From: Escherichia phage vB_EcoM_TH18 | Direction: 5' to 3' (one strand) | Sequence record: ON075799 | DNA: 64,000 nt | In this document: positions 6,058 to 49,142 of the stretch, piece after piece | How the letters are laid out: each line of letters starts with the position of its first letter | Numbering within the stretch: position 1 is the first letter of the stretch | The notes under the pieces: generated by a model | What the model saw: only the letters and a program-made list of their open reading frames with translations | What the model was told of the DNA's origin: nothing | Databases searched by the model: none | Made by a program: the position numbers and the translations under genes

Positions 6058-6071
6058 ATCTATATTAACAG

Positions 6072-6559: not shown

Positions 6560-6568
6560 TGAATATTT

Positions 6569-6645: not shown

Positions 6646-6663
6646 GTTAAATTATCTTTAAAA

Positions 6664-6967: not shown

Positions 6968-7038
6968 AAAGATAGCCTCTGCCGAGGATATACACCCAAC
7001 AAAGGAGGCGCTCAGGTCAGAAGAAATCTGAGCCTTAA

Positions 7039-7132: not shown

Positions 7133-7153
7133 AATACCTTAGTAATTAAAAAC

Positions 7154-7243
7154 TGGTGGAGAAGGAGAGAATCGAACTCTCAAGCCGTTTTACCAGTCAG
7201 CACATTTCCAATGTGCTTTCGTCGCCAATCGATTTGCTTCTCC
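7154..7243 (-). tRNA. tRNA-Ser (anticodon GGA), type II
   Basis: 90 nt; acceptor GGAGAAG/CTTCTCC, anticodon arm GCACA-TTGGAAA-TGTGC, long variable arm, T arm GAGAG-TTCGATT-CTCTC, CCA encoded. Confidence 0.65.
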
Positions 7244-7252
7244 GTTTTAACT

Positions 7253-7328
7253 TGGCAGGGGATGGTTGATTCGAACAACCGATCACGGGGTCAAAGCCCG
7301 TTGCATTAGGCCACTATGCTAATCCCCT
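7253..7328 (-). tRNA. tRNA-Gln (anticodon UUG)
   Basis: Perfect cloverleaf: acceptor AGGGGAT/ATCCCCT, D arm GCAT/ATGC, anticodon arm ACGGG-CTTTGAC-CCCGT, T loop TTCGAAT, CCA encoded. Confidence 0.85.
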
Positions 7329-7333
7329 TTTGC

Positions 7334-7410
7334 ACGAGAGTGAGGAATAGAACCTCTTAGTCACTGGTTTTGGAGGCCAGCCTTCACCCAGTGAAGTTAC
7401 GCTACTCTCA
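7334..7410 (-). tRNA. non-canonical tRNA-like element
   Basis: Good acceptor (TGAGAGT/ACTCTCG) and T-loop-like GGTTCTATTCC, but D and anticodon regions do not fold into standard arms; no encoded CCA. Confidence 0.3.
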
Positions 7411-7417
7411 TTAAAAA

Positions 7418-7975
7418 CTATTTTCGAAAAGGACTTATGAAAAATGCCAACATCACTCTCTCTCTTGAAAAAGCTCTGTCTTCAGGAACCACACTCTTCA
7501 GTTTCCAACCGACATAAATTCGCCAGTAAAATTGTTTTCCAAACAATCTAAAAGACGGGACAAACGCGAATACACCCCACGCATTGTCATTCCACATCAA
7601 CAAATAGCCTTGTTGGTTATCCTCCACATCAGAGCTTACATGGAGGTTTCCTTTCCACTTTGTCACAGATGTGATTTCACGTCCAAGTACGTGATAGGAG
7701 AAATTGTAGGCTTTATTTCTCCACAACCAAGCAACTCGTTGTAGGTAAACACCAAAACTTCCTATTTTACGGACTTCTTCCCATCTCTCTATGTGTCCTC
7801 TATCACCGTCTATAGGATTATCATATGTCTCCATCCACCTGAAAATATAAGGCAGATGCCCTGTCTTCTCATTATAGAACGGAACAACAAAAGGAGCCAG
7901 AATAACACAGAGAACCGACATAACTGGGTCAAGAGGTGCTAACAGGATCCACGATAAATATTTTAAGTATCTCAT
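7418..7975 (-). CDS. hypothetical protein (185 aa, hydrophobic N-terminus)
   Basis: ORF from six-frame track; start overlaps stop of upstream gene (ATGA). Confidence 0.5.
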   Translation of the reverse strand: MRYLKYLSWILLAPLDPVMSVLCVILAPFVVPFYNEKTGHLPYIFRWMETYDNPIDGDRGHIERWEEVRKIGSFGVYLQRVAWLWRNKAYNFSYHVLGREITSVTKWKGNLHVSSDVEDNQQGYLLMWNDNAWGVFAFVPSFRLFGKQFYWRIYVGWKLKSVVPEDRAFSRERVMLAFFISPFRK

Positions 7976-8202
7976 GCAGGATCAAGCCTAGATATAATGT
8001 ACTGGTTTAAATCTGAATATGGGAAGATACTTTCAAAGATAACCTGTTTAAATCTGAAGCCGCACAAACCGAAAAGTACCTTCTGACACTCACCAAAAGA
8101 GCAATCTTTACCAACTTTTATCACAACCGTATCGGCAATCTGCACACTTTCTATCTCTTTAGATTCATGATGCCGTACTATGATTACTTTAGAAACCATC
8201 AT
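7972..8202 (-). CDS. hypothetical protein (76 aa)
   Basis: ORF from six-frame track; translationally coupled to downstream gene. Confidence 0.45.
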   Translation of the reverse strand: MMVSKVIIVRHHESKEIESVQIADTVVIKVGKDCSFGECQKVLFGLCGFRFKQVIFESIFPYSDLNQYIISRLDPA

Positions 8203-8327
8203 ACTCGTCCATATTAAAGCCTTCTACTAAAGATAGTAGATGTCTAGGGTTGGACCGCAAACGCAACCCCATGGAATTTGTTACGGTCTTCAGTTGACCC
8301 AAGCGGATTTCATTGACATCTTTTAAC

Positions 8328-8402
8328 TGGAGCATCCAGAGGGTATCGAACCCTCGACTTCAGCTTGGAAGGCTGTAGTTTTCCCAATTAAACTATGGAT
8401 GC
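8328..8402 (-). tRNA. tRNA-Gly (anticodon UCC)
   Basis: Acceptor GCATCCA/TGGATGC, D arm GTTT/AAAC, anticodon arm (A)CAGC-CTTCCAA-GCTG, T arm GAGGG-TTCGATA-CCCTC, CCA encoded. Confidence 0.75.
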
Positions 8403-8407
8403 ATATT

Positions 8408-8483
8408 TGGTGGGAGTGGTAGGCTCTGCCCCTACGTCCTCTCGATTATCGGTCGAGCGATCTACTAACTGATCTACACTCCC
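8408..8483 (-). tRNA. tRNA-like cloverleaf with Ile-type anticodon GAU but non-canonical D and T loops and C at position 33
   Basis: All four stems perfectly paired, CCA encoded, but D loop AGTTAGTA lacks GG, T loop is GGCAGAG (no TTC), anticodon loop is CCGATAA. Confidence 0.5.
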
Positions 8484-8546
8484 AAACTGTACTGGCCCAA
8501 CAACCACGATTGGAGGGTATCGTCACACATCAAAGCCAGTACAGTT
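8484..8546. other. long perfect hairpin (13-bp stem, ~37-nt loop) between two tRNA genes
   Basis: aaactgtactggc (8484-8496) and gccagtacagttt (8534-8546) are exact reverse complements. Confidence 0.6.
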
Positions 8547-8551
8547 TTAGT

Positions 8552-8641
8552 TGGTGTGCCGTGATAGAGTCGAACTACCCGAGTCCCTTTCGAGACAGGA
8601 GATTTACAGTCTCCCCCGCTACCCCTACGGTCTAACGACAC
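8552..8641 (-). tRNA. tRNA-Tyr (anticodon GUA), type II
   Basis: 90 nt; acceptor GTGTCGT/ACGGCAC (one G-U), anticodon arm GGAGA-CTGTAAA-TCTCC, long variable arm, T loop TTCGACT, CCA encoded. Confidence 0.7.
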
Positions 8642-8642
8642 A

Positions 8643-8990
8643 TTAACCTTGTTTGAATTGAACAATATCCGTCGAGAACGGTTTAGCTGCCTTAATAGGT
8701 GCTTTTTCTGAGTTATCTTTTTCGAGTAACTCTTCGTTTTCCTCATCAAAGTAATCAGAAAGCATCTGCTCACCTTTCTCAATAACATAACGAGCTATAT
8801 TTTCTCTGATATTGTCTTTTGTATTCACATTCTTCATCAAATCCCTAAGAACCTGATGAGCTTCAGGAATCATTGCAATCAGATTCGTTTTTAAATCTAG
8901 GATATTTTTCTCTAACTGAATTGCATTAGATTCCTCTTTCAGAGGACGACCTTTTCCTCTTCTACGTTTTGTAAGCTGCTTAGTAGCCAT
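8643..8990 (-). CDS. hypothetical protein (116 aa, basic N-terminus)
   Basis: Start refined to MATKQLTKRRRGKG; the longer ORF-track N-terminus overlaps the tRNA cluster; sigma70-like promoter just upstream. Confidence 0.5.
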   Translation of the reverse strand: MATKQLTKRRRGKGRPLKEESNAIQLEKNILDLKTNLIAMIPEAHQVLRDLMKNVNTKDNIRENIARYVIEKGEQMLSDYFDEENEELLEKDNSEKAPIKAAKPFSTDIVQFKQG

Positions 8991-9009
8991 TTTAAAACCC
9001 CACTTAATG

Positions 9010-9039
9010 ATATTATCAAATAAAAACATATCTGTCAAG
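9010..9039 (-). promoter_or_regulatory. sigma70-like promoter (TTGACA, 18-nt spacer, TAATAT)
   Basis: Minus strand reads TTGACA...TAATAT shortly upstream of the ATG at 8990. Confidence 0.5.
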
Positions 9040-9075
9040 TGGTATTTTAACATATTTACCAAGAAATTGAAAGTT

Positions 9076-9152
9076 TGGAGCACGGTGTCGGACTTGAACC
9101 GACATATATCTGTTTTGCAGACAGATCCGTAACCAAATTCCAGCAACCGTGC
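9076..9152 (-). tRNA. tRNA-Cys (anticodon GCA)
   Basis: Acceptor GCACGGT/ACCGTGC, anticodon arm TCTGT-CTGCAAA-ACAGA, T arm GTCGG-TTCAAGT-CCGAC, CCA encoded; D stem weak. Confidence 0.65.
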
Positions 9153-9228
9153 AATAAGTACCCCAGGTAGAGAACCTATAGAGTGGGTCTTACGAGCCGC
9201 GCTGACGATTCTCAAGTTGGGGTTAATC

Positions 9229-9305
9229 TGGTCGAGGAGACAGGATTCGAACCTGTGACCTACGGCTTAGAAGGCCGCTGCTCTATCCAACTGAGCTACA
9301 CCCCG
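9229..9305 (-). tRNA. tRNA-Arg (anticodon UCU)
   Basis: D arm GCTC-AGTTGGATA-GAGC, anticodon arm GCGGC-CTTCTAA-GCCGT, T arm ACAGG-TTCGAAT-CCTGT, CCA encoded; acceptor has one mismatch. Confidence 0.7.
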
Positions 9306-9505
9306 AAAATAAGAATGCTTTATAGTGTATGGTTACTCAACCTCACTCCAACTTCCACAGTTGGTGCTCTACGAGCATGACTACGTTTGAAATCAACGTT
9401 GCGCACCGATAGCTTTCTCACGCATTGTATGCCTCATTCCCAACAAATGCTGATCAGACATTTATATCGAATAATATAAGCTAATACACTATAAAACAAA
9501 CTTGT

Positions 9506-9602
9506 GGCTGGGTGATGGAATCGAACCACCTATGTATTCAACGGCTTCCCCGTCTATTTTCAGGATTATAAATCCTCGCCCTTGCCAAAGGGCTTACCCA
9601 GC
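9506..9602 (-). tRNA. over-long (97 nt) tRNA-like element, anticodon arm ambiguous
   Basis: Perfect acceptor (GCTGGGT/ACCCAGC), D arm GCCC-TTTGGCAA-GGGC, T arm GGTGG-TTCGATT-CCATC; central region has only a 4-bp stem with loop TTTATAA and ~30 extra nt; no encoded CCA. Confidence 0.35.
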
Positions 9603-9604
9603 AT

Positions 9605-9679
9605 TGGTGCTCGCAGCAGGTTTCGAACCTGCAACCCCCTGCTTACAAGGCAGGTGCTCTACCGTTGAGCTATACGAGC
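9605..9679 (-). tRNA. tRNA-Thr (anticodon UGU)
   Basis: Acceptor GCTCGTA/TGCGAGC, D arm GCTC/GAGC, anticodon arm CCTGC-CTTGTAA-GCAGG, T arm GCAGG-TTCGAAA-CCTGC, CCA encoded. Confidence 0.85.
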
Positions 9680-10044
9680 AATAAGACATTGCTTCCGATT
9701 AACAGCCTTGAGGCTTTACAGACCATATCTTGTGAGCCATAACCTGTGCCAAGGATTTCAGATGATAAACGAAATTTTATCTTTCAAGAGTCAACTTTCA
9801 AGTTTCATCTTTTACATTTAACCATTGACCTTTATTGTATGAACTTTTACTTAGTGGAAACAACAAGGCATCTTCGTGTGCCTCGCTGCATCTATGTCCT
9901 GTATTATCCTCATACATATACGATACATGGTGGGGGATATTTAACCTCCAACCCCCAGGAGGCAAGATGATGTAAACTTCGTTAATCAAAAGCAATGTTT
10001 TAAATTTCAAAACAAAGGAACGATAATGATATTATCAGAGCCTT

Positions 10045-10692
10045 TTAGAGAGAGTGCTCAATCTCAATTTCTGTCTTAGCGTTTGACTCAGACAACGCAA
10101 AATCAACGTTAGACAAGAAATCTTCAATCTCTTCTTCAAGAGAACGAATCTTAGAAGCCAGTTCAAGAGGATCCACAACCGATGGTGTGTTCATCATTCG
10201 AATAGGAGCTTCCACAGTCTTAATCTGCTCTGCATCTGGCGCTTTATCACGTTGGATATATGGCGCTCTTGCATTTTCAAGTTTATCTTCCAGAGATTTT
10301 TCTTCTTTTGCCAGAAGAAGCTGTGCAGAAGCACGCTGTGCACAAAGTTTGTTTAACAACTCTTGTTTAAAGCAAATCGTCCGTTTGCGTTCGATTGCCT
10401 CAGCAACTGTCATAGACACATTACCAATTTTGACAATTGTCTCAGCATTAGACTTAACAATTTTTGCTTTCAGTTCATCACGCACTGCCAAGAGGTCTTG
10501 CAGACTTTGATAGTCGTTGATCGCAGATTTCTTAAAATCATCAACAGAGCCGATATAACCCGGAATCTTACAATTATTCTCAGTTCCTTTTGCAATCTTA
10601 ATACAATCAAGATTGTAGATACGCTTATTGATCTTATCTTCAATTTTAGAGATAGAAGCAAGTGCACGAGTTACGGAAATCTTAGTAGACAT
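10045..10692 (-). CDS. hypothetical protein (215 aa, charged coiled-coil-like)
   Basis: ORF from six-frame track; charged, heptad-like composition. Confidence 0.55.
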   Translation of the reverse strand: MSTKISVTRALASISKIEDKINKRIYNLDCIKIAKGTENNCKIPGYIGSVDDFKKSAINDYQSLQDLLAVRDELKAKIVKSNAETIVKIGNVSMTVAEAIERKRTICFKQELLNKLCAQRASAQLLLAKEEKSLEDKLENARAPYIQRDKAPDAEQIKTVEAPIRMMNTPSVVDPLELASKIRSLEEEIEDFLSNVDFALSESNAKTEIEIEHSL

Positions 10693-10765
10693 GCGATCTC
10701 TCCTATGTAAATCAGCTTTGATAAAGTAACTATCCAGAAAAACAAAAACTATGTCAAGAAAAATT

Positions 10766-10957
10766 TTAATCTTTTACAGCATCTTTTATAGAATCACAAA
10801 GATCTTGAACAACATCAGATGTCGGTGACAAAATCATCTCGTCGGCTGCTGCTATAGCATCTGATGCTAAATCAACAAACGGAGTTGTTACCGCAGAAGT
10901 CACTTCAACAGCCGTTATTGTTACTTCGCTTGCAATCTTAAGCAAAGATCCTATCAT
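10766..10957 (-). CDS. hypothetical small acidic protein (63 aa)
   Basis: ORF from six-frame track in an otherwise gene-free gap. Confidence 0.4.
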   Translation of the reverse strand: MIGSLLKIASEVTITAVEVTSAVTTPFVDLASDAIAAADEMILSPTSDVVQDLCDSIKDAVKD

Positions 10958-11033
10958 AATCTCAACCCTCCTGAATATCCGTGATTCCCTTTATTTAACG
11001 ACGCTGGCTCACGGTGGCACTCTCGTCAATAAA

Positions 11034-11357
11034 CTATTTTTTAGTTTTCTTACCGTTTTCTACAGAAATGCTTGTTTTCTGTTTCGCTTCTCGTTCGCGC
11101 TTTGTTTTCCCAGTGCGAATACGATATGAAGCAGAAATAACTTCACCACCAATGACACGAGACACAGATTCGTAATACATTTCAGTATTACCGTCTTCAT
11201 CTTTGCGTTTTTTCAGAACTGCTACAGTTTGCGTTTTACCACCAAGGCGCACATCGTGCGGTGCAGAATGTGTCTGCGTGGATTTTGATCCAAACTGAAA
11301 AGGTTGCTTTATCGCCTCGATAGCTGACACCTTTTTAGCAGACTGTTTCTTAGCCAT
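11034..11357 (-). CDS. hypothetical basic protein (107 aa)
   Basis: Start refined to MAKKQSAKK with strong RBS ggagga upstream; lysine/arginine-rich. Confidence 0.55.
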   Translation of the reverse strand: MAKKQSAKKVSAIEAIKQPFQFGSKSTQTHSAPHDVRLGGKTQTVAVLKKRKDEDGNTEMYYESVSRVIGGEVISASYRIRTGKTKREREAKQKTSISVENGKKTKK

Positions 11358-11408
11358 TAAGTTTTCTCCTCCGAAAACAATAAACATAGTTTATTTCGTG
11401 TGCCACAT

Positions 11409-11485
11409 TTGGTGGCCCCTGCTGGACTTGAACCAGCGACCAAGCGATTATGAGTCACCTGCTCTATCCAACTGAGCTAAGGGGC
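11409..11485 (-). tRNA. tRNA-Met (anticodon CAU; initiator/elongator/Ile2 not distinguished)
   Basis: Acceptor GGCCCCT/AGGGGCC, D arm GCTC-AGTTGGATA-GAGC, anticodon loop CTCATAA, T arm GCTGG-TTCAAGT-CCAGC, CCA encoded. Confidence 0.8.
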
Positions 11486-11818
11486 CGAATCTCTTAATAT
11501 GAGATGATATTATCCTGTATGATCTACATTGTCAAGAGATATTTTAAAATTTTATACATCCCAGTTTTCTTCTTGATAACAACCTTCCCCGAATCCAACT
11601 TCTTTTTCAAAATCAATACCTTTTTTCATACATTCCTCACATTAACAGATATTGTTTTCAAACTCAAAACGTAAAATACGAACTCTGTCAATACACTGCT
11701 GTAATCTACAAAGCAACAACTCAACTTGTTTATGCGTCTCTTCAGTATACGTTTTGGTCATCTTGCTTTTCTCCGTGATCTTTTCATTGCAGCTTCTGCA
11801 CGTCTTTGTTTACGATTT

Positions 11819-12395: not shown

Positions 12396-14111
12396 TTAAA
12401 GCTGTGATAAGGCTCTTTGGCGAATTTCTTCAAGATCCTCATCCACAAGCAGCTTACCATTAACAAAAACTGTTCTAAGCTCGTTATCATGGTCAGATAC
12501 TTGGTTAATACCAAGATTATCTACCAGCTTCAACTCGCCATCATCACCACGAATAACTTTAACAAAACCTTTCGCAGATTTCTTCCCAAGATCAGTCTTA
12601 GGCTCTTTTACGACCATTACTTGTCTGCCATCAATCACAGCACCAGTAGCTTTTACAGCCATCCCAAGAGAATCACGGGTTGTATATTGCGTTGTATAAG
12701 ACCCTACACCAAACACAATGTTACTGGAAGCAAACCCTCGTTCTTCAAGGCGCTCAAAGATCTCTTTAGCACGGGAGATTGTGATAGAGTCTCCGTAGAT
12801 TAAACCAACATGGCTATCAAGAACTTTGTAACCCAAAGAGTTTACACTACCACCAAAGATTTCCCACAAGCATTGTACAGCACCCTTAACTTCCTCTTTT
12901 GTCAGATAATTTGTAAATTCATCACCTGTCAAAGATTTCCAATCTACGAGGTTGCCTTCCGAATCTCGCATCCATGAAGTGTCTCTGGACATCTCGTATA
13001 AAGTGACATATTTGCCATTTTTAAACAGCACAGCATCCATGTCACAGCACTGCCCCGTTGCCCATTCTTCCTGAGAGCACACGCGATAACCAGCAATGAT
13101 GTGCTCTGGGATCCCACTGTCAGGTCGGAAGACCAGCTTGCCATCACGAGACATAATCTCATCTTTCAGGATTTTTGCTGCCTGTGTAATGATTGCCCAA
13201 AAATCATAGCTGTCAGCGACGTATGAAGCATAACCTGATGGGAAAATCTCTGTCACATAACGCTTTAAGAACTCAACTTCAGCACGAAAACGTGCTTCAT
13301 CAAGCGGCATATCAGGATTTTCCTGCTGGATACGCTCAACAATAAAACCAATGTTCGTTGTCGCTACGCTATGCTCAGATGCGGGAATAGACCCAGCAAC
13401 AAAGCGACCTTTCATGTTGTAATAGCGATTTGCGTAAACAATCGCTGGAATTGTATCTGTGCCCATTGAGCTAATCAGTTGCCCAAATTCGCTCTGTGCT
13501 GCGTCATGTGTTCCAGCTTCACCACGGTATGCAAAACAATGGTTCTGGAAAGGAACATGATCGTTGTTATCACATGTTTTCTTTGCCCACAGTTCTGATA
13601 GTTTACGGTATTGCCAGAAAGTCGTTGCCGTGGTAATTGTCTTCCAAGTCTCCGATGAGATCACGCTCTCAAGGAAGTTCGGCAGCCAGTAAAAATCAGG
13701 ATGCGTGTTCTGAATCGTGAACATGGGAACCTGAACAGGAACAAGAGTTCCTTCAGGCAAAGCCCTAATTTCAATTGGGAGATAACCAAGGTCATGCAAT
13801 TTCTCAAAACCCCAAGTTTCAACAGCATCCTTCCCAATGCTCAAATCACAAATCTCTTTGTAATCCTGAATCGCCTTTTCTTTCGGTAAAGCGAAGAAAT
13901 TATTATTAAACATGTCGATCAGGAACCACTTGATAAATCCCTGAAGACCTGCAAACATCACACGATGGTCATCATCTGCAAAGTGTACAAAGTGTTTCAC
14001 ATTGCGTGGGGTCATGTTGTCTTGAACAAACTGTGAACGTCTATCGTACATCGAGATGTGACTTGGTTTATAAAAATCTGCGAACAGCAATGGACTTTCT
14101 TTGTGAAGCAT
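12396..14111 (-). CDS. nadV: nicotinamide phosphoribosyltransferase (NAMPT/NadV family)
   Basis: 571 aa; overall resemblance to the NAMPT family by eye (not searched); adjacent to a PRPP synthetase gene. Confidence 0.7.
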   Translation of the reverse strand: MLHKESPLLFADFYKPSHISMYDRRSQFVQDNMTPRNVKHFVHFADDDHRVMFAGLQGFIKWFLIDMFNNNFFALPKEKAIQDYKEICDLSIGKDAVETWGFEKLHDLGYLPIEIRALPEGTLVPVQVPMFTIQNTHPDFYWLPNFLESVISSETWKTITTATTFWQYRKLSELWAKKTCDNNDHVPFQNHCFAYRGEAGTHDAAQSEFGQLISSMGTDTIPAIVYANRYYNMKGRFVAGSIPASEHSVATTNIGFIVERIQQENPDMPLDEARFRAEVEFLKRYVTEIFPSGYASYVADSYDFWAIITQAAKILKDEIMSRDGKLVFRPDSGIPEHIIAGYRVCSQEEWATGQCCDMDAVLFKNGKYVTLYEMSRDTSWMRDSEGNLVDWKSLTGDEFTNYLTKEEVKGAVQCLWEIFGGSVNSLGYKVLDSHVGLIYGDSITISRAKEIFERLEERGFASSNIVFGVGSYTTQYTTRDSLGMAVKATGAVIDGRQVMVVKEPKTDLGKKSAKGFVKVIRGDDGELKLVDNLGINQVSDHDNELRTVFVNGKLLVDEDLEEIRQRALSQL

Positions 14112-14174: not shown

Positions 14175-14984
14175 TTAAAAATTTTCTGTCCAGTCGTAGT
14201 ACGCATAGATTTCGTCAACGCCACCGTTGAGAATAAATTCTTTCCCACGAGAGAAAATCCCATGCGTGACATACAAGATAACACGTTTAGCACCAGCAGC
14301 TTTCAAGGCTTGAGCTAAGTTTGTAAACGTAAACCCACCATCGCAGATATCATCAACAATCAGGCACATCTTCCCATCGACATCACCAAACACTGTTGTG
14401 CCTGTGATTGCCCCTGTTCCCACATCACGGATTTTACCAGCTTCAACCACAGATAGTTCCAAGGCATCAGCTACCTTCTGGGTCTTCTTGCGTGCACCTG
14501 CATCTGGAGCAACCAACACAAGCGATTCGTCCGTAAGCAGATCAAAATCAAACTTCATGTTCAAGAACAATTCAGTCTGAGAACGAATTTTCACGTTATC
14601 AAGCAGTGCTGCGGATACGTCACTGTGTGGGTCATCGACGATGACTTTGTGGAAACCCAGCGAGTTAATCATTGTGGCAAAGACTTTCACCGACAGAGCT
14701 TCACCAGGGTTCATAACTCGGTCTTGTCGAGCATACGGGATGTACGGCAGGTGTAAAACCTTTTCCACACCAACATCCAAATTGCCAAGACGATTGACTG
14801 CATCAACAAGCAACGCAAGACACATCACATCTTGGGAGTGCTTAATGCGAGCGAAGATATCCACAAAACCAATCGAACCCTTAGGGATATAGTGCATATC
14901 GATCTTCACCTGCTCCTCACCACCACTGAAGGTAAAATGGTCAACTGGAACATGCAACTTGTTCAAACTCAAACGAATATTCAT
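14175..14984 (-). CDS. prs: ribose-phosphate pyrophosphokinase (PRPP synthetase)-like
   Basis: Motifs PYIPYARQDR, VAPDAGARKK and PRPP-binding LIVDDICDGGFT match the Prs family pattern. Confidence 0.7.
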   Translation of the reverse strand: MNIRLSLNKLHVPVDHFTFSGGEEQVKIDMHYIPKGSIGFVDIFARIKHSQDVMCLALLVDAVNRLGNLDVGVEKVLHLPYIPYARQDRVMNPGEALSVKVFATMINSLGFHKVIVDDPHSDVSAALLDNVKIRSQTELFLNMKFDFDLLTDESLVLVAPDAGARKKTQKVADALELSVVEAGKIRDVGTGAITGTTVFGDVDGKMCLIVDDICDGGFTFTNLAQALKAAGAKRVILYVTHGIFSRGKEFILNGGVDEIYAYYDWTENF

Positions 14985-35569: not shown

Positions 35570-35850
35570 AATCTTTCAAGTGCTTCTGCCTCTTCCATGT
35601 TCGGGAAGATACCGTAGAAACAGAACTTACCTTTAGAGAAGTACGGAATAAATACCCGCCCATCACTGGTTTCAAACATCTTATCAAAATTTGGTAGCTT
35701 CAGGTGTGATTTTATAGCCTCTTTAATACTTTTATCCCATTGATGCTGCCATTTACAGGCTTTTAGGTATTCACTAATATTGTAAGAACCTACTCTCCTC
35801 AAAATACTGGTGAGAAACTTTTTGTTTTTACGAATAATCTTCTTTTTCAC
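35530..35850 (-). CDS. hypothetical protein (106 aa), paralog of the next gene
   Basis: N-terminus MKKKIIRKNKKFLTSIL similar to MKKKLARRNKLFLSKSL of 35828..36133. Confidence 0.5.
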   Translation of the reverse strand: MKKKIIRKNKKFLTSILRRVGSYNISEYLKACKWQHQWDKSIKEAIKSHLKLPNFDKMFETSDGRVFIPYFSKGKFCFYGIFPNMEEAEALERFWGRKCLRLNNRK

Positions 35851-36133
35851 TCAAAAGCCTCATTTCTTCAAACTGCTCTGGTGTCAATAAACTTGTTCCT
35901 ACACGACTGCCATTACCACACATAAGAGGTACGGCAATCATATGGCTATCCTTTTCTGCATTACCTAAATCAAGGTACTCCCCATAACGTTTGATAAGTC
36001 GAATGCTCATTTTTGAATTAGCTAAAGCCCTTGTGTTATAGAGATAATCCTCAAGGTACAAATGTAGATCGTTTGCCACCTTTAAAGATTTTGATAAGAA
36101 TAATTTATTACGCCGTGCCAGTTTTTTCTTCAT
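35828..36133 (-). CDS. hypothetical protein (101 aa), paralog of the previous gene
   Basis: Shared N-terminal basic motif with 35530..35850. Confidence 0.5.
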   Translation of the reverse strand: MKKKLARRNKLFLSKSLKVANDLHLYLEDYLYNTRALANSKMSIRLIKRYGEYLDLGNAEKDSHMIAVPLMCGNGSRVGTSLLTPEQFEEMRLLSEKEDYS

Positions 36134-36326
36134 ACACCCCTCGCTTGTGCCTGTACATTGCCAGAGGCCATACAGAACTCACTATAAAGCATTTCCATGC
36201 CCAACCCCATGCAGTTTTTGGTGCATAGACCTGTTCAAGTGTTTTACTATTCTCCATCTCTGCGGTATGCACAAACCATACCGCAATATACAATGTAACT
36301 GTAATGTAGATAAAGCTATTAATCAT
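36108..36326 (-). CDS. small membrane protein (72 aa)
   Basis: Two hydrophobic segments (FIYITVTLYIAVWFV; CFIVSSVWPLAM). Confidence 0.45.
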   Translation of the reverse strand: MINSFIYITVTLYIAVWFVHTAEMENSKTLEQVYAPKTAWGWAWKCFIVSSVWPLAMYRHKRGVYEEKTGTA

Positions 36327-37380
36327 TCATCTTATCCCAACACATTTGTTGCGCTGTCATCAAGACGTCAGCAGCAAAATCAAGGTCTGTTGACTTCGGT
36401 AAATGCGTGCTCTTGTACAGAGTGTTACGAATATAATCATCCTTCTCTTCTGCCCAAGCCAAGAGCTTCTCCAAAGACCATGCACCATTCCTGATTGCAA
36501 GAAGCTCCTGAGCATCAGGTCTTTTTACTAAGACTTTACCTTCTGCTAGGATCTCCTCAGCCATACGCATCAATCTTACCAAATGGAGAGCATGTTTGCA
36601 ATCGTACCCGTACTTTTCTTCTAAGTCATGCCGAACCAGATTTCTGTTTTTAACCCATGCCCAGTAGTTCTTATGTTTTTCCTTTGCTTGTTTATGCTCC
36701 TCTGCCAGATATTTAACAATTAAAATTGGCTTACGTCTCTTATCCTCGTCAGAGAACTGCTCGTAAGGAACTTTACGAATAGAACCATCAGAGTTAAACA
36801 AGCCAGCATTGTCGTGTGTTCCGATCACGCCATAGATATTATCACCCATGGGTAAAAAGACACACAACTTGTTAAGATCATCCAACATTTTCTGGAAGTC
36901 TTTGTGTTTTGTAAGATTATCATCCATCCACGAGTGTGTCAAGCGCATGAACTCTTTTTGTGTTGGTTGCTCTTTAGGTTGCGGGTTATTAATCCATTTA
37001 TTATGGCCTTTGATACGCTTAAGTTGCGCCATCGCATACCCAGAAAAAGTAAAAGCAACTTTGCTGGATAGGAGTTTTGGCGCTTGCTCGCGTAGGTACT
37101 CGTAAACATCTGAAGTTTGCAGAATGTCACCTCTATCAACAAACATAAGCTCGATGATGTTTGGGTTCATATCAACGAACAACTTCATGTAGTTTGTTAG
37201 CTCATACAGCTTACCATCCTCTTCATCAATAAGGGTCATTTCTCTGTCAACGAAAAATGGGGTAAGAATGCTTTTAGGCTCTGCACAATAAATTCCGCGA
37301 ATATCCACATCGGATGTTGGTAAGTTAGTTCCATATGCAATGCTGCCGGAGTAACAGCGCATTAGTTCTAGTTTCTTCAT
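36319..37380 (-). CDS. Pol-beta-superfamily nucleotidyltransferase, function unknown
   Basis: N-terminal signature YSGSIAYGTNLPTSDVDIRGIY (GS-x9-13-DhD) typical of minimal and cGAS/DncV-like nucleotidyltransferases; 353 aa. Confidence 0.6.
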   Translation of the reverse strand: MKKLELMRCYSGSIAYGTNLPTSDVDIRGIYCAEPKSILTPFFVDREMTLIDEEDGKLYELTNYMKLFVDMNPNIIELMFVDRGDILQTSDVYEYLREQAPKLLSSKVAFTFSGYAMAQLKRIKGHNKWINNPQPKEQPTQKEFMRLTHSWMDDNLTKHKDFQKMLDDLNKLCVFLPMGDNIYGVIGTHDNAGLFNSDGSIRKVPYEQFSDEDKRRKPILIVKYLAEEHKQAKEKHKNYWAWVKNRNLVRHDLEEKYGYDCKHALHLVRLMRMAEEILAEGKVLVKRPDAQELLAIRNGAWSLEKLLAWAEEKDDYIRNTLYKSTHLPKSTDLDFAADVLMTAQQMCWDKMND

Positions 37381-37739
37381 TCTCGTACCTTTGTGCTTTT
37401 TCTTACATTATCCCAAAAATCAAGGATATTTTGGTATCGGATCTTGTCTTCCATATATTCAGCCTCATCACGAAGATCGCATACATGGTCTATTAAGGCA
37501 CACACTTCATTATAGTGTTCTGTATCACTTGTGATGTGCTTAATCATACAAGATCCTGCTTTCCACTTTGAAAGTGAGTATCTCAGATTATCATCTTTCT
37601 CTGTGGGGGACGCGTCAACTAATATTTTTGCCTTATTGCCTTTTATCTTTTGTACCACCCCTCTGCGCAATTCATTATTACCCCAATAGATAAATACTGT
37701 ATCGCCAACAAACAGTTTTGTTCCGCTTGCGTCTCTCAT
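37377..37739 (-). CDS. hypothetical protein (120 aa)
   Basis: ORF from six-frame track; coupled to the nucleotidyltransferase gene (overlapping stop/start). Confidence 0.5.
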   Translation of the reverse strand: MRDASGTKLFVGDTVFIYWGNNELRRGVVQKIKGNKAKILVDASPTEKDDNLRYSLSKWKAGSCMIKHITSDTEHYNEVCALIDHVCDLRDEAEYMEDKIRYQNILDFWDNVRKSTKVRE

Positions 37740-37740
37740 T

Positions 37741-38085
37741 TTAAGACCCTAGTAAGAAGAAATAATAAATGGTTATTGCTGCAAAGTAAGTAATCCCGCT
37801 CAATAACCCAAACCAACATTGCTTGGCAGTATAAACTTTCTCTGACAAAAGATTATTCCCTGCTACAATATGCCTACACAACCAAACTCCCATCAAGAAT
37901 CCACCTATTAAGCCACCCGTCGGAGGTGTTAACATGGTGATCATTGCAAGACCTTCAAGCAAAGAGAATATTAAAAAACATGGGAATGCTTTTCTTTTAC
38001 ATTTAAAACCTTTTCCATCGACACAAACTTTGGCTAGGCTTGCTATGCAAAAGACCGTCCAAAGCACATACAATGTATAAACCAT
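37741..38085 (-). CDS. membrane protein (114 aa, 3-4 TM helices)
   Basis: Highly hydrophobic throughout. Confidence 0.5.
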   Translation of the reverse strand: MVYTLYVLWTVFCIASLAKVCVDGKGFKCKRKAFPCFLIFSLLEGLAMITMLTPPTGGLIGGFLMGVWLCRHIVAGNNLLSEKVYTAKQCWFGLLSGITYFAAITIYYFFLLGS

Positions 38086-38149
38086 AATCCACTTAACCTT
38101 CGAATGTTAACCTCTCCTATTCTATCAGAGAGGTTTCAAAAATGATCTA

Positions 38150-38647
38150 CTACTCACCTTTTAGCTTAAAACTTTTCAACGTTTTGATAAAGTCTTTCTC
38201 TGCTGGTGTGTAAGTGTGAACTAAACCTGTTTCTTCACAGGTGTAGGTATCATTAACCTCCATTGCATGTTGAGGGATAAATGTACCTTCAGGAACAGGC
38301 TTATATTCTGGGTTGTAGATAAACTCCGGCAGCACAACAGCCACAGCAGTCATTGCTCCATTCAAGGCTTCCTCTTCTTCACGCCACCAAGCATATGGAT
38401 AAGTTTTGAGAGGCATAAGTTGAGCAAGAAAATCTTGGAGTACTGACTGATAACCACCATTTAAAATAATGATGGTCTTATCTTTTTCTCTCCAACATTT
38501 CAACCAGTGGTGTGCGGTTAACTCCTCTGGCGCTCCTGCTGGTTGGTCATACCATGTCATGAGTTCCGCAATAGCATGTGCCGATTGGATACCTGCATGG
38601 ATACCGGAGATATACTGATTAACAACACAATACATTCTTGTTTTCAT
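38150..38647 (-). CDS. hypothetical protein (165 aa)
   Basis: ORF from six-frame track. Confidence 0.5.
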   Translation of the reverse strand: MKTRMYCVVNQYISGIHAGIQSAHAIAELMTWYDQPAGAPEELTAHHWLKCWREKDKTIIILNGGYQSVLQDFLAQLMPLKTYPYAWWREEEEALNGAMTAVAVVLPEFIYNPEYKPVPEGTFIPQHAMEVNDTYTCEETGLVHTYTPAEKDFIKTLKSFKLKGE

Positions 38648-38862
38648 TTTTCTTTCTTCCTAAAGATTATTCTATCTTCACTAAAAATTTCCTGTAACCC
38701 AGCAGCTATCAGTGCAAATATTGCTACCCACCATACAACTAACAGGAGTACCCCAACAAGCAAATCTCTACCTGTGATCTGTTGCTCAACCCTGTAGGTA
38801 ATAATAAAGAAAGCTACGGATACTAAAGCACCAACAAAGAAGTAGATAAACACTTCAGTCAT
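38644..38862 (-). CDS. small membrane protein (~73 aa)
   Basis: Start refined to MTEVFIYFF (ggaga RBS) to remove the frame overlap with the upstream gene. Confidence 0.45.
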   Translation of the reverse strand: MTEVFIYFFVGALVSVAFFIITYRVEQQITGRDLLVGVLLLVVWWVAIFALIAAGLQEIFSEDRIIFRKKEK

Positions 38863-39173
38863 TATCTCTTTTCTCCAAGTACCTTTTTTACCATAAGGGC
38901 CACAACGTAAATTCCCACAAGACAAATCCAGAATGTGAAAATAATAGGTAAAAGCATTACCGCAAGCGTTATAAACAGTGGTCCTGCAACAGTGACGAAT
39001 GCTGTTCCAAGCAACAACAAAAATACTACATATCTAACCGTTTCATCCACCTTCTTAAGATACACACCTAAACACACAGAAGACAATAGGAATGATAGAA
39101 TGGACAGCAACAGATACCAATTATCAATGAAAATGACAATTGGACTAGCAACATTTTCTAACCACCACATCAT
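38862..39173 (-). CDS. membrane protein (103 aa, 3 TM helices)
   Basis: Hydrophobic throughout. Confidence 0.5.
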   Translation of the reverse strand: MMWWLENVASPIVIFIDNWYLLLSILSFLLSSVCLGVYLKKVDETVRYVVFLLLLGTAFVTVAGPLFITLAVMLLPIIFTFWICLVGIYVVALMVKKVLGEKR

Positions 39174-39187
39174 ATATTCATACCTCT

Positions 39188-40432
39188 TTAGAATAACATA
39201 TCCCTGCTAATTGCTTTACGAATAGCATCAATACGGGCTACTCGCACAGCTTCACCAATCTCTTTACCCTTCTTACCTTTTTCCAGAAGAGGGTTTGTGA
39301 TAGCTTTAGAATCAACTTTTGTCATAGCGTCATAGGCTTCCAACAAAATATGACCTTGAAGGTAAGGTTTATGCCTAAAATCACCACCTCTTCCTTTAGC
39401 ATCACAATAACATGCATCTGCAAGTGTGTAAACCTTCATTTTCTGATCAGCTTGTCCAGCAGCTTCAAATATTTTCATGATGCTTTTTGGTTTCAAACCG
39501 TTGTTACCATCTGTGGGAGAGATGGCGTGCACTTTTGTGTGATTTTCTGCAACATATTTTGCCGTGTCACGATAGATATTATAAATCTTTAACCTTTCGC
39601 ACAAAGATTGGATAACATCCGCACCAGCTTTTTCATGACCATGCAAATTACCATTGTTCTTGTAAGTTACAGCTTTGCCAAAATCATGGCAAAGCACAGC
39701 AAACTTGGTCAGTGGATCAGCTTCTAATTCATCGGCAACCCGTAACGCTAGAATTGTATGAGTGTAAGCATCCCCTTCTGGGTGGTGTTCTTTAGGTTGT
39801 TGTACACGACGCAGGGCTTCCAGTTCAGGAAGCTCGCCAATACGTCCCATATTGACAGCAAAAGATCTGAAATAATCACTCTTTAAGGCTTTCAACATTT
39901 CATTCCATTTACGCTCGGCGCTTATTTCTGCCAAAGAGTGTCGGTTGTCATAAGCCAGTTTAAAAGTCTCTGGGTGGATATGCCATTCTTCCCCAAGCTG
40001 GGCTTTAAATCTAAACAGGCGTAGAATACGTAACGGGTCTTCAATAAATGCCTGTGATGTATGACGTAATGTTTTAAGTCCTAAATCAACCTGGCCACCA
40101 AAAGGATCAATAATCTCACCACTGTCAACATCCATCGCCATGGAGTTGATGGTTAGATCTCTACGTGCCAAATCCTCTTCCAGAGTTACATCTGGGCTAA
40201 AGCATACCTCAAATCCTTTATGGCCTTCGCCTGTTTTTCTTTCTGTGCGTGCAAGAGCGTACTCTTCTTTTGTTTCTGGGTGAAGATAAACTGGAAAAGA
40301 TGCGCCAACTTGTGTGAACCCTCTTTTCAACATCTCTTCATGCGTAGCTCCAACAACAACATAATCACGGTCTGATAATTCACGACCCAATAATTTATCT
40401 CTAACCGCCCCACCTACCAAATATACCTTCAT
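39188..40432 (-). CDS. cca: tRNA nucleotidyltransferase (CCA-adding enzyme) with HD domain
   Basis: Start MKVYLVGGAVRDKLLG...DRDYVVVG (class II head) and HD-domain region; ATGA overlap with upstream stop. Confidence 0.85.
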   Translation of the reverse strand: MKVYLVGGAVRDKLLGRELSDRDYVVVGATHEEMLKRGFTQVGASFPVYLHPETKEEYALARTERKTGEGHKGFEVCFSPDVTLEEDLARRDLTINSMAMDVDSGEIIDPFGGQVDLGLKTLRHTSQAFIEDPLRILRLFRFKAQLGEEWHIHPETFKLAYDNRHSLAEISAERKWNEMLKALKSDYFRSFAVNMGRIGELPELEALRRVQQPKEHHPEGDAYTHTILALRVADELEADPLTKFAVLCHDFGKAVTYKNNGNLHGHEKAGADVIQSLCERLKIYNIYRDTAKYVAENHTKVHAISPTDGNNGLKPKSIMKIFEAAGQADQKMKVYTLADACYCDAKGRGGDFRHKPYLQGHILLEAYDAMTKVDSKAITNPLLEKGKKGKEIGEAVRVARIDAIRKAISRDMLF

Positions 40433-40701
40433 TTCTTCACCCACATGTTCATATAATTAACAATATCTTTTATGGTTCTCTTGCCGTCCAGTGGATAAAC
40501 CATGTCATCGCTCATCCCACCGTGTTTTAGCATTGCTACCAGCCTAGTATATACCCCTTTTGGTCTTTTGCAAGTTCTTTTCTTCCATTTATGACCGTCT
40601 GGGGAGTACTCCTTATCTTCAAGAGAGATATGAAGTATATCTCCTATAAACTCTTTTGCCTGTGTGCTGTAAAGTGGACGGTAGAATATGTAGAATTTCA
40701 T
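40429..40701 (-). CDS. hypothetical protein (~90 aa)
   Basis: Start tentatively MKFYIFYRPLY; stop overlaps cca start. Confidence 0.45.
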   Translation of the reverse strand: MKFYIFYRPLYSTQAKEFIGDILHISLEDKEYSPDGHKWKKRTCKRPKGVYTRLVAMLKHGGMSDDMVYPLDGKRTIKDIVNYMNMWVKK

Positions 40702-40760
40702 CGCTTGCTCCTTTGTTGTAATAACAATACCAGTGCAAGCCACCTGTGTCAACACATAAA

Positions 40761-40785
40761 GAAAAACCCGCTAAAAAGCGGGTTA
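40761..40785 (-). terminator. rho-independent terminator (hairpin usable in both directions)
   Basis: aacccgc-taaaaa-gcgggtt flanked by A/T runs. Confidence 0.6.
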
Positions 40786-46879: not shown

Positions 46880-47240
46880 TGATGAAACGAGTTTGTCAGA
46901 TAATCTCTTTCGATTAATCCTGGGTATGCTTCTTTAAGTTTTGTGGCAAATTTATAACACAGAGATTCTGCCGATGTACCGCTGCTTTCGCAGTATTTTC
47001 ACGGACTAGACTATATCACGATCTTGTGACCACTCACAAGACCCTCCACATTTCGCCATTCAAGGCTACTCTACTCGCTTCTTCACATCAGGTGAAGCTG
47101 ATGCTATGCTTTCGATAGTCGTTAGAGACAATCTCTTGCCTACGGGGTTAGCTCTGCCCCAACAGGGTTTAGCCTTTCTTACCAGCTTATTGTTTATTCA
47201 GCTATGCCCGTTTAGTGGAGTTATTCGACAACCATCACTG
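46880..47240 (-). mobile_element. putative group I intron in nrdD (no ORF; boundaries approximate)
   Basis: ~360 nt non-coding insert between nrdD segments; R-like gatagtcgtt (~47120) and S-like agactatatc (~47003) elements. Confidence 0.5.
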
Positions 47241-47753
47241 GTTGAAGGCCCAATTGTGTTTAGGCGTGCCATATAGGCTAAATGCTAAACCACTTCGCTC
47301 TTTAAAATCAGCACAAATATCCTTCATATATTTCAAGATATTCATTGCCATCTCTTTACGAACTGGTTCGCCATACAAAATTTCAACTGCTTCATAAAGA
47401 CCCACATAGCCAATACTGATTGATGCGTAGCCATTAAAGAAGAGTTTACTAATCTTTTCATCAGGTCCGAGCCGTGCAATAGCCCCCTCCATAAACATTG
47501 TGGGATTCTGGGATGCTTTTACATCCATCAATCTACCGACTCTAACCATGTGCGCTTTATACGCCATTTCCATGTGCTTTTCAAGCAATTCGGTAAACAG
47601 AGTTTTCTTAGATTTTGCTTCTGCTGCAATCATAGGTAAGTTTAGAGAGACAACACCAAGATTGAATCTACCATCATATTTCTCACCATGTTCTGTTGCA
47701 TAATAAGATAAGAAACTTCTACACATTATGTTCGAAGTGGTTCGCAAGGCCAC
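47235..47753 (-). CDS. nrdD: anaerobic ribonucleotide reductase NrdD, central exon (ORF ends extend into introns)
   Basis: In-frame segment between two intron-like inserts, assigned to nrdD by position; true exon limits likely ~47245-47725. Confidence 0.6.
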   Translation of the reverse strand: MALRTTSNIMCRSFLSYYATEHGEKYDGRFNLGVVSLNLPMIAAEAKSKKTLFTELLEKHMEMAYKAHMVRVGRLMDVKASQNPTMFMEGAIARLGPDEKISKLFFNGYASISIGYVGLYEAVEILYGEPVRKEMAMNILKYMKDICADFKERSGLAFSLYGTPKHNWAFNQ

Positions 47754-47985
47754 TCCCGCACCACTACGTGCTGCTGCATGTCACCATGCAGACCAGACCA
47801 TATCTTCATGCTTAAAGCATGTCTGCCGTTTGGGGTGTCATCAGCTTACACTCTACATCCCTACATTCATCAGGATTGGTCGTTAGGCATTTACGGTTGA
47901 TACCGATTTAGCACGGGATTCCCTCCATAGAGGATTCCCCCGTTTAGGCAGATTTTACATGAGCAGTTATAGTTTACCCATGCTT
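47726..47985 (-). mobile_element. putative group I intron in nrdD (no ORF; boundaries approximate)
   Basis: Non-coding insert with a 38-nt block (47755-47792) identical to one in the terminase intron (609-646); S-like agaccatatc and R-like ggtcgtta elements. Confidence 0.5.
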
Positions 47986-49142
47986 GTAACACGCCCGTCT
48001 GAAGAACCTGTTACCTTTTTATTCAACGGTACAGATATGAAATCTGGATAAATCCTTTCAACACAACACTCCATGGCTAATTGCTTTAAGTCGTAGTTGG
48101 GATCGCCAGGTTTCATGTTTACACCATCTTCCAAGAAGAAGATAACTTTTGGAAAAACAGGTGTGACTTTGTCTTTGCCAAGTCCGTTTTTGTGAACAAG
48201 AAGATAATTCTTTGTAATCATTCTCCCAAAATAGGAAGTATCAAGCCCAAGACTCAAGGTGATAAATGGGCATTGACCGTTAGCACTCATCAAGGTATTT
48301 ACCTGATAAAGCAATGTCTGCATAGCATCGTAAACATCTTTTTCCGTCATCTGCATAGCTACACCTTCTGGGTCTGGCAGCCATTGCTCCTGACAAAATT
48401 TTAGATTTTTATCGTAACTTGCCTTGGCATATTGTTTTAATCCTTCATCAATATGGGTGTATGACTGACCACCATATTGAACCGAAGAAACTGATTGGGA
48501 TATCTGGCTAAGAATGGTACAGGCAACACCTATCGATTTCGGCTTTTCTATTTTTGCATTGCCAATTTTAAAACCGTTCTCCAACATATCCCTATAATTT
48601 ACAAGACTGCAATTAGTTAATGGGCTTATCAAATAATCTAAGTCATGTATATGACCATAACCATTTGTATGCCATTCAGCCAATTCTTTTGGTAGAATTT
48701 GAGTTAGTGAGACGTGCTTGCTAAGGATACCCGCGAGAAGATCACGATGGCTACTAACCACCCCACTTGGTTTATTAGCGTTTTCTTTAGTAAATTCATC
48801 GGCAGTTTGTTCTAAGAATCCCGTAATATCTGCAAACAGTTTTCCTTTACCTTCCCTAACGTTATCACGCGTTTTACGATATTCAATATACGCCCGTGCA
48901 GCGTTCTTGAGGTCAAGATCCATTAGTGAATCTTCCACAATGCGGTGAATATCACAAACAGCCACTTTCTCTTGCGGTGGTTCTGATTTTTCCAGAGTTT
49001 CATAGGCTTGCTCGCCAACTGCACACGCCAGAGGATATGATTTCTCACCATAACCAGCAGCAATTAAAGCGGCTTCTGCCGCTTTAATAACTTTCACACC
49101 ATCATAATCTTCTTCACGCCCATCACGTTTAACAACTTTCAT
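47967..49142 (-). CDS. nrdD: anaerobic ribonucleotide reductase NrdD, 5' exon (N-terminal region)
   Basis: N-terminus MKVVKRDGREEDYDGVKVIKAAEAA (ATP-cone-like); ORF 3' end likely runs a few codons into the intron. Confidence 0.75.
   Translation of the reverse strand: MKVVKRDGREEDYDGVKVIKAAEAALIAAGYGEKSYPLACAVGEQAYETLEKSEPPQEKVAVCDIHRIVEDSLMDLDLKNAARAYIEYRKTRDNVREGKGKLFADITGFLEQTADEFTKENANKPSGVVSSHRDLLAGILSKHVSLTQILPKELAEWHTNGYGHIHDLDYLISPLTNCSLVNYRDMLENGFKIGNAKIEKPKSIGVACTILSQISQSVSSVQYGGQSYTHIDEGLKQYAKASYDKNLKFCQEQWLPDPEGVAMQMTEKDVYDAMQTLLYQVNTLMSANGQCPFITLSLGLDTSYFGRMITKNYLLVHKNGLGKDKVTPVFPKVIFFLEDGVNMKPGDPNYDLKQLAMECCVERIYPDFISVPLNKKVTGSSDGRVTSMGKL

Follow-up and report, generated by a model that had tools for sequence, protein, structure and literature searches.

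A 64,000-nucleotide (nt) stretch of DNA from Escherichia phage vB_EcoM_TH18 (sequence record ON075799; hereinafter designated the window) encodes, at 36319-37380 on the minus strand, a 353-amino-acid (aa) nucleotidyltransferase (NTase) that sequence comparison identifies as a phage RlaP-family member of the Pol-β superfamily. We propose, with a probability of about 0.6, that this enzyme is part of a phage tRNA 3'-end repair set together with a CCA-adding enzyme and a hydrolase of the peptidyl-tRNA hydrolase 2 (PTH2) fold, keeping tRNA usable under attack by host ribotoxins. An earlier note on the same DNA had compared the protein with cGAS/DncV-like enzymes and had suggested that, coupled to small membrane proteins, it might form a nucleotide-signalling module. 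RlaP stands for 'RNA ligase-associating Pol-β'; the family takes its name from association with a ligase in the same operon, which is true of only part of its members.

A phage nucleotidyltransferase of the RlaP family

The open reading frame (ORF) begins MKKLELMRCYSGSIAYGTNLPTSDVDIRGIYC and carries the GS/DxD signature picked out in the earlier note at residues 10-31. The assignment to the minimal type of nucleotidyltransferase also holds: the protein belongs to the Pol-β superfamily, and its GS, DxD and third-Asp catalytic set is intact, with G12, S13, D24, D26 and D55 invariant across 45 aligned family sequences (the 353-aa protein and 44 relatives). Homology searches returned 3072 homologues at E≤1e-3 (best 3.4e-241; 5480 cluster representatives); with thousands of homologues the ORF is a real gene, and it is already annotated 'nucleotidyltransferase' in RefSeq.

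The Pfam family RlaP (PF10127) matches the protein with 50.7 bits against a gathering threshold of 23 (E 2.6e-13) and is the one family for which a curated threshold is exceeded; at E≤0.1 only NTP_transf_2 is found besides it. All 45 aligned sequences match RlaP (best 1.2e-19), and PHROG 388, 'nucleotidyltransferase', is matched at 1.3e-76. By contrast, neither the protein nor any of the 44 relatives has a SMODS, Mab-21 or OAS match in Pfam, and none of the PADLOC defence models, including those for CBASS cyclases, matches the 353-aa protein. The GS/DxD motif, on which the comparison with cGAS and DncV had been built, is common to the whole Pol-β superfamily, and the likeness does not survive these searches. 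A confident match to an NTase family outside signalling was also what the earlier note had named as the result that would speak against a nucleotide-signalling module, and the RlaP match is, in spirit, such a result.

The AlphaFold 2 (AF2) model of the protein (pLDDT 91.8) is laid out as an NTase core (residues ~1-130), a β-rich insert (~141-224) and a helical domain (226-352), the last element of which is a long helix. G12 and S13 fall at β1 and the following helix, D24 and D26 on β2 and D55 on the next strand. Basic residues are conserved in the C-terminal helical domain (R246, R250, K262, H266, R269, R287 and R297 across the 45 sequences), and many basic residues in the C-terminal third are likewise invariant. 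A Foldseek search with the model gave kanamycin nucleotidyltransferase ANT(4') as the best match (E 0.013, probability 0.96), with LinB, AadA, MNT antitoxins and DrrA also listed; the neighbours of the predicted structure are generic minimal NTases only, and cGAS, DncV and OAS are not among its nearest solved structures, so that the structure prediction proposed as a check on the cGAS-like reading turned out against it. No chain of the PDB was matched by the single sequence or by the family profile (E≤10), the coordinates of PfRlaP apparently not being among the chains searched. The published crystal structure of PfRlaP comprises an N-terminal NTase domain and a C-terminal helical domain whose last helix packs back on the NTase domain (PMC12776372).

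Several NTase homologues of ~700 aa (P0121, P0122 and locus L084:2162-4213) are interrupted by an intein at the position of residues 260/261 of the window protein (window ~36598-36603). The insertion site lies in the C-terminal helical domain, between GYD and (C/T)KHA(L/M)HLVRL, and the insert, whose core is LAGLIDADG-like, opens with Cys and closes with HGN or QGN, after which comes Thr or Cys. Its position marks the GYD/(C/T)KHA(L/M)HLVRL motif as functionally critical.

A tblastn search over phage genomes matched 385 records, in which the N-terminal core reaches T4-type nrdC.11 (RB16, E 2e-6); NrdC.11 of T4 has been placed in the RlaP family (PMC12776372). Among 185,579 species genomes scanned there were just 8 matches, all on contigs of metagenome-assembled genomes. 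Judged from these searches, the NTase subfamily is almost entirely phage-borne. One homologue (52% identity; L178, 5001-6056 of a 136-kb contig of GCA_054033555.1) stands alone in what appears to be a bacterial chromosome, with GGDEF/EAL, OmpA and RND efflux genes as neighbours, and is divergent to a gene of the metallo-β-lactamase fold that has Apyc1 and weak tRNase Z-type Pfam matches.

Linkage to a CCA-adding enzyme and a PTH2-like protein

We collected 84 loci encoding a relative of the NTase, 78 of which have enough upstream sequence for a CCA-type gene to be counted. Such a gene lies upstream of the NTase gene, on the same strand and 0-2.5 kb away, in 23 of the 78, and three further contigs (L177, L179 and L180) have a same-strand CCA-type gene 1.0-2.9 kb upstream. 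The packing is tightest in TARA marine and JGI contigs, where the CCA-type gene overlaps the start of RlaP by 4 nt and genes of the PNKP-type kinase/phosphatase or Metallophos families lie nearby; in one TARA contig, present in two assemblies (L085/L086), genes for the CCA enzyme, RlaP and a PTH2-like protein follow one another in this order, all overlapping. Among 80 loci found through the PTH2-like protein, RlaP occurs within 8 kb in 20 and a CCA gene in 18, the order of the genes varying and the phages being very diverse. The partner of the NTase that is conserved across phages is the CCA-adding enzyme, followed in frequency by the PTH2-like protein. As read from these gene neighbourhoods, the linkage is strong but lineage-dependent.

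Contigs with the CCA-RlaP pair also encode, a few kb off, a protein of the Acb2/Tad1-hairpin type, a family of anti-CBASS/Thoeris sponges, and in another contig a PARP-like protein directly follows RlaP (L085:4800-5138 and L180:6413-7711). These regions of marine and metagenomic contigs look like anti-defence neighbourhoods.

In the window, the CCA-adding enzyme is encoded at 39188-40444 on the minus strand, immediately upstream of the interval treated in the earlier note (36108-39173), which did not mention it. It is a class II enzyme, a tRNA nucleotidyltransferase with an HD domain: the Pfam families PolyA_pol (head domain, 1.3e-21), HD (7.4e-8) and PolyA_pol_RNAbd are all matched above threshold, PHROG 2244 is matched at 1e-144, and against the NCBIfam model 'multifunctional CCA addition/repair protein' the score is 414 bits, a little short of the 451 required. 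The gene likely starts at an ATG 12 nt downstream of the listed GTG.

Within that interval lie two soluble, recognizable proteins that had likewise gone unmentioned. One, of 165 aa (38150-38647, minus strand), has the PTH2 fold with a C-terminal extension of ~55 aa. Its Pfam PTH2 score is 15.9 bits against a threshold of 23, and 26 of 39 relatives match the family, weakly. In our reading of the motif, the position of the active-site Lys of PTH2 (GKxxAQxxHA) is occupied by His17, and by Gln in distant members. Because of the sub-threshold score and the replaced catalytic Lys, we file the protein as PTH2-like and not as a PTH2 orthologue.

The second is a DUF7205 protein of 120 aa (37377-37739, minus strand; Pfam DUF7205, 112 bits). 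In 10 related loci its gene stands immediately before that of the NTase, and in the JGI contig L179 RlaP likewise comes after a short DUF7205 ORF, while a homologue search returned only 4 proteins, all near-identical. A profile search against the PDB aligned its N-terminus with the KOW motif of uL24 at a marginal E of 0.0028. The N-terminus may accordingly form a KOW/SH3-like barrel. An accessory role in binding RNA or the ribosome is conceivable for this protein, whose translation is coupled to that of the NTase.

RNA ligase and tRNA genes of the phage

Over bases 35800-40500 the sequence shows 100% identity with Escherichia phages 18-1-2, 19-1-2 and 24-2-1, and 90% with phage Av-05; the window derives from an Escherichia phage of the Vequintavirinae type. 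In Av-05 an Rnl2-type ligase (Pfam RNA_ligase) adjoins a macro-domain protein tens of kb from the NTase, and an Rnl2-type ligase is also encoded on a second record of phage 24-2-1 (96% identical), which is the same phage as that of the window, and in most Vequintavirinae. With Rnl2 present in the phage, a ligase is therefore available that accepts the 3'-OH ends made by RlaP.

A tRNA cluster at 5815-11486 (minus strand) holds 16 genes called by ARAGORN and one, at 8411-8483, found by Rfam only. The 3'-CCA is encoded in 16 of the 16 ARAGORN-called genes, so that the phage CCA enzyme is not needed for their maturation and is probably present for repair. The set includes Thr-UGU, Lys-UUU and Tyr-GUA. 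These isoacceptors have been reported as targets of P2-OLD, PARIS AriB and PtuAB (PMC12445682), so a second strategy of the phage against tRNases may be to replace the tRNAs.

Small membrane proteins of the locus

Four small ORFs of the interval, all on the minus strand, encode hydrophobic proteins. The ORF at 38862-39173 specifies 103 aa with ~3 transmembrane (TM) segments (hydropathy index GRAVY 1.44; PHROG matches weak only). That at 38644-38862 (PHROG 14512) specifies 72 aa with 2 TM segments, starting at an ATG at 38862 with GGAG upstream; this length agrees with the annotation of Av-05, and the listed TTG ORF of 93 aa is over-extended. The ORF at 37741-38085 (PHROG 16835) specifies 114 aa with 3-4 TM segments (GRAVY 0.96), and that at 36108-36326, downstream of the NTase (PHROG 11850), specifies 72 aa with one strong N-terminal TM segment and a weaker hydrophobic one. 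The description of these four as almost entirely transmembrane is borne out as regards their hydrophobicity but is generous for the last, with its single strong TM segment.

Sequence homologues of the four occur in 3, 6, 9 and 10 of the 84 NTase loci, with 3 for the 114-aa ORF and 9 for the 103-aa ORF; homologues of the 36108-36326 ORF stand directly downstream of the NTase in 10 loci. Between lineages the membrane ORFs reach blastp E values of 0.1-0.3, which are not significant, and one Vequintavirinae-like subgroup has multi-TM ORFs in the corresponding positions without significant similarity to those of the window. The marine contigs with abutting enzymes have no multi-TM ORF in the cluster. 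Compared with Av-05 (L005), the products of 38644-38862 and 37741-38085 are 39% and 61% identical, whereas the enzymes of the locus are 83-97% identical, pointing to unusually fast divergence as expected for proteins at the host interface.

The functional coupling of the NTase to membrane partners proposed in the earlier note is not upheld by these comparisons, as the membrane ORFs are not retained outside Vequintavirinae-like phages and the CCA gene is. Nor do they supply an effector with a nucleotide-sensing domain: the TM ORFs are 72-114 aa long, consist almost wholly of TM segments and do not occur where other lineages encode the NTase. From their distribution we conclude that the four are probably lineage-specific, fast-evolving genes in a shared early-gene array, and not obligate partners of the NTase.

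Gene packing, transcription and the wider window

Every gene across ~32.7-42.5 kb is on the minus strand. The coupling of the NTase gene to small ORFs was correctly recognized earlier, the genes being co-directional and overlapping or abutting: neighbouring ORFs mostly overlap by 1-26 nt or sit 1-14 nt apart, and the single larger gap is one of 64 nt (38086-38149). From the CCA gene onwards, a 14-nt gap to the 103-aa ORF is followed by a 1-nt overlap of that ORF with the 72-aa ORF at 38644-38862 and a 4-nt overlap of the latter with the PTH2-like gene; further downstream, 1 nt separates the 114-aa ORF from DUF7205, the stop of DUF7205 and the start of the NTase gene overlap by 4 nt, and the NTase gene overlaps the ORF at 36108-36326 by 8 nt.

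A consensus scan found a terminator-like hairpin at 40784-40765 (minus strand) and, after it, a σ70-like site, TTGACA-17-TATTGT with a TG element (40752-40724), which is the best σ70-like match in the area. Hairpin and site together (40724-40784, minus strand) are suggestive of the probable start of a transcription unit running through the CCA gene and the NTase. As promoter-like sites are no more numerous than expected from shuffled sequence in the promoter and terminator scan, the operon boundaries are tentative. An Rfam scan found no structured RNA inside the interval.

Pfam scans of 30 larger ORFs of the window identified PhoH, NrdA/B/D/G, a ThyX-like protein, an RNase T-like exonuclease, NT5C, Band 7, an HNH endonuclease and an endolysin-like glycoside-hydrolase/PG-binding protein, and no ligase or polynucleotide kinase (PNK). 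A group I intron (Rfam RF00028, 79.8 bits) at 47774-48014 (minus strand) splits nrdD, the gene for anaerobic ribonucleotide reductase, into ORFs 47235-47753 and 47967-49142. Past 43.8 kb (window 43834-64000) megablast gave no alignment with Av-05 of more than 400 nt; there the window continues on the minus strand with PhoH, an endolysin-like protein (Glyco_hydro_19/PG-binding), NrdD/G, NrdA/B and a ThyX-like protein, and Av-05 switches to tail-fibre genes. This divergence points to one of the two records being rearranged or differently assembled. A nicotinamide phosphoribosyltransferase and a PRPS-like enzyme, assigned by synteny with Av-05, are encoded at 12396-14111 and 14175-14984 (minus strand), a pair reminiscent of the pathway by which phages reconstitute NAD+ in the face of NAD-depleting defences.

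A proposed role in tRNA repair

Two RlaP enzymes from Pseudomonas have been found to add 1-2 nucleoside monophosphates (NMPs) to the 3'-OH of RNA, with Mn2+ preferred, largely without a template and with little specificity for the nucleoside triphosphate; neither DNA nor E. coli proteins are substrates (PMC12776372). In one substrate comparison, the 3' end at the break site of a cleaved-tRNA mimic was favoured over the acceptor 3' end, and RlaP treatment restored the aminoacylation of a tRNA lacking one nucleotide (PMC12776372). The bacterial genes lie in RtcB/RtcA repair operons, and the published model has RlaP filling in nucleotides at anticodon-loop breaks (PMC12776372). By analogy with its family, the window NTase most likely extends damaged RNA, and tRNA in particular, by 1-2 NMPs at the 3'-OH in a Mn2+-dependent, largely untemplated reaction.

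In the repair set that we propose, the NTase would be co-transcribed with the CCA-adding enzyme and the PTH2-fold hydrolase for the maintenance and repair of tRNA ends. The hydrolase would free a blocked or acylated tRNA 3' end, RlaP would restore nucleotides lost beyond the reach of the CCA enzyme, or lost at an anticodon-loop break before sealing by Rnl2, and renewal of the CCA end would fall to the CCA enzyme. The site of action could thus be the acceptor end, as the partners suggest, or anticodon-loop breaks sealed by Rnl2, as in the published RlaP model. Either way, translation would be maintained while host ribotoxins or toxin-antitoxin systems attack tRNA. The counter-defence role raised in the earlier note is plausible in this form, through RNA repair rather than signalling.

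Since its tightest partner is the CCA-adding enzyme, both in the window phage and in unrelated marine phages, and is in many cases joined by a PTH2-fold hydrolase and PNKP-type genes, phage RlaP may act at the tRNA 3' end. A more specific, and tentative, version of the proposal is that the CCA enzyme, RlaP and the PTH2-like hydrolase constitute a phage cassette, not described before, whose specific task is the reconstruction of tRNA acceptor ends; we hold this to be possible but doubtful. Here an acyl or peptidyl group, or one installed by a toxin, would be removed from the 3' end by the hydrolase; the discriminator or other nucleotides beyond the capacity of the CCA enzyme would be put back by RlaP, leaving the CCA enzyme to finish the end. 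In this way the cassette would neutralize host toxins that act on tRNA 3' ends by trimming, extension or blockage, and its localization or regulation in Vequintavirinae might be the task of the interleaved, fast-evolving membrane proteins and of DUF7205.

Several observations weigh against the proposed repair role. About 57 loci from T4-like marine myoviruses have the NTase beside uvsX-/gp32-like genes with no CCA gene nearby. The PTH2-like protein, with His17 at the Lys position, is only a putative hydrolase, and a tblastn search of the 64-kb window with Av-05 Rnl2, the macro-domain protein and their neighbours gave no match, so that the RNA ligase from which the family has its name is missing locally. 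The Pfam RlaP alignment spans model positions 22-140 of 249, that is, the N-terminal half, and with an insert of ~100 aa the substrate choice of the phage subfamily could differ from that of the Pseudomonas enzymes. Small multi-TM ORFs recur by position between the CCA gene and the NTase in most Vequintavirinae-like loci examined, and a lineage-specific link of the NTase to the membrane in these phages is conceivable.

Should phage RlaP indeed act on the 3' end of tRNA, phage tRNA repair would have a wider reach than is known at present. The analysis also removes a false lead, in that the locus is not a phage CBASS-like or Hailong-like module, and it offers a compact three-gene set for experimental testing against tRNA-targeting defences.

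Alternative explanations

A signalling enzyme of the CD-NTase or cGAS-like kind would yield a product that the membrane ORFs sense or are regulated by, the locus being a phage-borne module or a decoy against CBASS or Thoeris. The GS...DxD motif, the tight co-directional packing with four hydrophobic ORFs and the recurrence of small TM ORFs at the same position in Vequintavirinae-like loci fit such an enzyme, but the missing SMODS, Mab-21, OAS and PADLOC matches do not, and TM ORFs of 72-114 aa that have no room for a ligand-sensing domain, are absent from NTase loci outside this lineage and share little sequence within it make the explanation highly improbable. Equally hard to sustain is a Hailong-like arrangement, in which the NTase, resembling HalB, would gate a membrane channel by means of an oligodeoxyadenylate-type polymer, the channel being formed by the TM proteins of the phage itself or being host HalA, which would be kept closed. 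DNA is not a substrate of bacterial RlaP, which adds no more than 1-2 nucleotides (PMC12776372). The likeness to HalB is a generic fold match, the NTase family profile matches no PDB sequence at E≤10, and no HalB-family NTase paired with a HalA-type channel was found at the locus. HalA is a tetrameric channel with a cytoplasmic crown, unlike the window ORFs with their almost pure TM segments, and the conserved partners of the NTase are tRNA enzymes.

MenT reportedly blocks aminoacylation by adding nucleotides to tRNA 3' ends, and the NTase could be an offensive modifier of the same kind, stopping host translation by extra nucleotides on host tRNA while the phage tRNAs, CCA enzyme and hydrolase protect or reset the phage's own pool. 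The untemplated addition of 1-2 nt to an RNA 3'-OH by RlaP is the same kind of reaction (PMC12776372), and the phage has at least 16 tRNA genes of its own. Those tRNAs, however, have the same CCA terminus, which would leave them just as vulnerable, and what is known of RlaP runs the other way: it favoured the break site over the acceptor end, it raised the aminoacylation of the shortened tRNA, and its bacterial genes sit in RtcB/RtcA repair operons (PMC12776372). We therefore consider an offensive role unlikely. The Foldseek matches, led by ANT(4') and including LinB, AadA, MNT antitoxins and DrrA, would suit an NTase unrelated to RNA that acts on small molecules or proteins, whether of the aminoglycoside/lincosamide ANT type or as an AMPylase of the MNT/DrrA type; at the sequence level, however, the family is RlaP, whose bacterial members do not take E. 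coli proteins as substrates (PMC12776372), and the genes around it encode tRNA enzymes, which renders this assignment quite improbable.

Comparison with known systems

With the CD-NTases (cGAS/DncV-like enzymes and CBASS cyclases) the window NTase shares the Pol-β superfamily and the GS/DxD motif and no more; it has no match to their families, no such structural neighbour and no sensor-domain effector, and its neighbourhood is one of tRNA enzymes. From HalB and HalA of Hailong it differs in being unrelated in sequence and identified as RlaP, and in having tiny TM-only ORFs beside it in place of a large gated channel.

The closest counterparts are the RlaP enzymes of P. fluorescens and P. aeruginosa (Carruthers, Fatma and Huang 2025, PMC12776372) and T4 NrdC.11. 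The window protein scores above the Pfam threshold for this family, has the GS, DxD and third-Asp residues, and is predicted to fold with its NTase core in the N-terminal part and, C-terminally, a helical domain that has many conserved basic residues; in its N-terminal part it is similar to T4-type nrdC.11, and the phage genome that encodes it also encodes an Rnl2 RNA ligase. In contrast to the Pseudomonas enzymes, it aligns with the Pfam model in the N-terminal half only and carries the β-rich insert of ~100 aa (~141-224), and its gene adjoins no RNA ligase, RtcB or RtcA and is linked instead to a CCA-adding enzyme and a PTH2-fold protein. Activity has been shown for the Pseudomonas enzymes, whereas the window protein is known from its sequence and belongs to a subfamily that is almost wholly phage-borne.

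RlaP, the CCA-adding enzyme and PTH2 are listed among the RNA-repair and ribosome-rescue functions of jumbo phages in the part of the survey by Iyer et al. (2021, PMC7824862) drawn on here, in a toolkit that also includes RNA ligases and PNK. In the window, too, the genes for RlaP, a CCA enzyme and a PTH2-fold protein form a single block, recalling this toolkit and tRNA repair by Pnkp and Rnl1 of T4; Rnl2 and a macro-domain protein lie elsewhere in the related Av-05 genome, Rnl2 is confirmed for the window phage, and PNKP-type genes stand beside CCA-RlaP in related marine contigs. The window phage differs in having a genome of ~120-135 kb, which is not of jumbo size, in tying RlaP to a CCA enzyme and not to a ligase, and in that no PNK was identified in the window; the overlapping three-gene cassette of some contigs is not described in that part of the survey. 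While the component families RlaP, CCA enzyme and PTH2 are all known and annotated, the tight, recurrent linkage of the CCA enzyme with RlaP, and in some contigs with the PTH2-like protein, is the new element.

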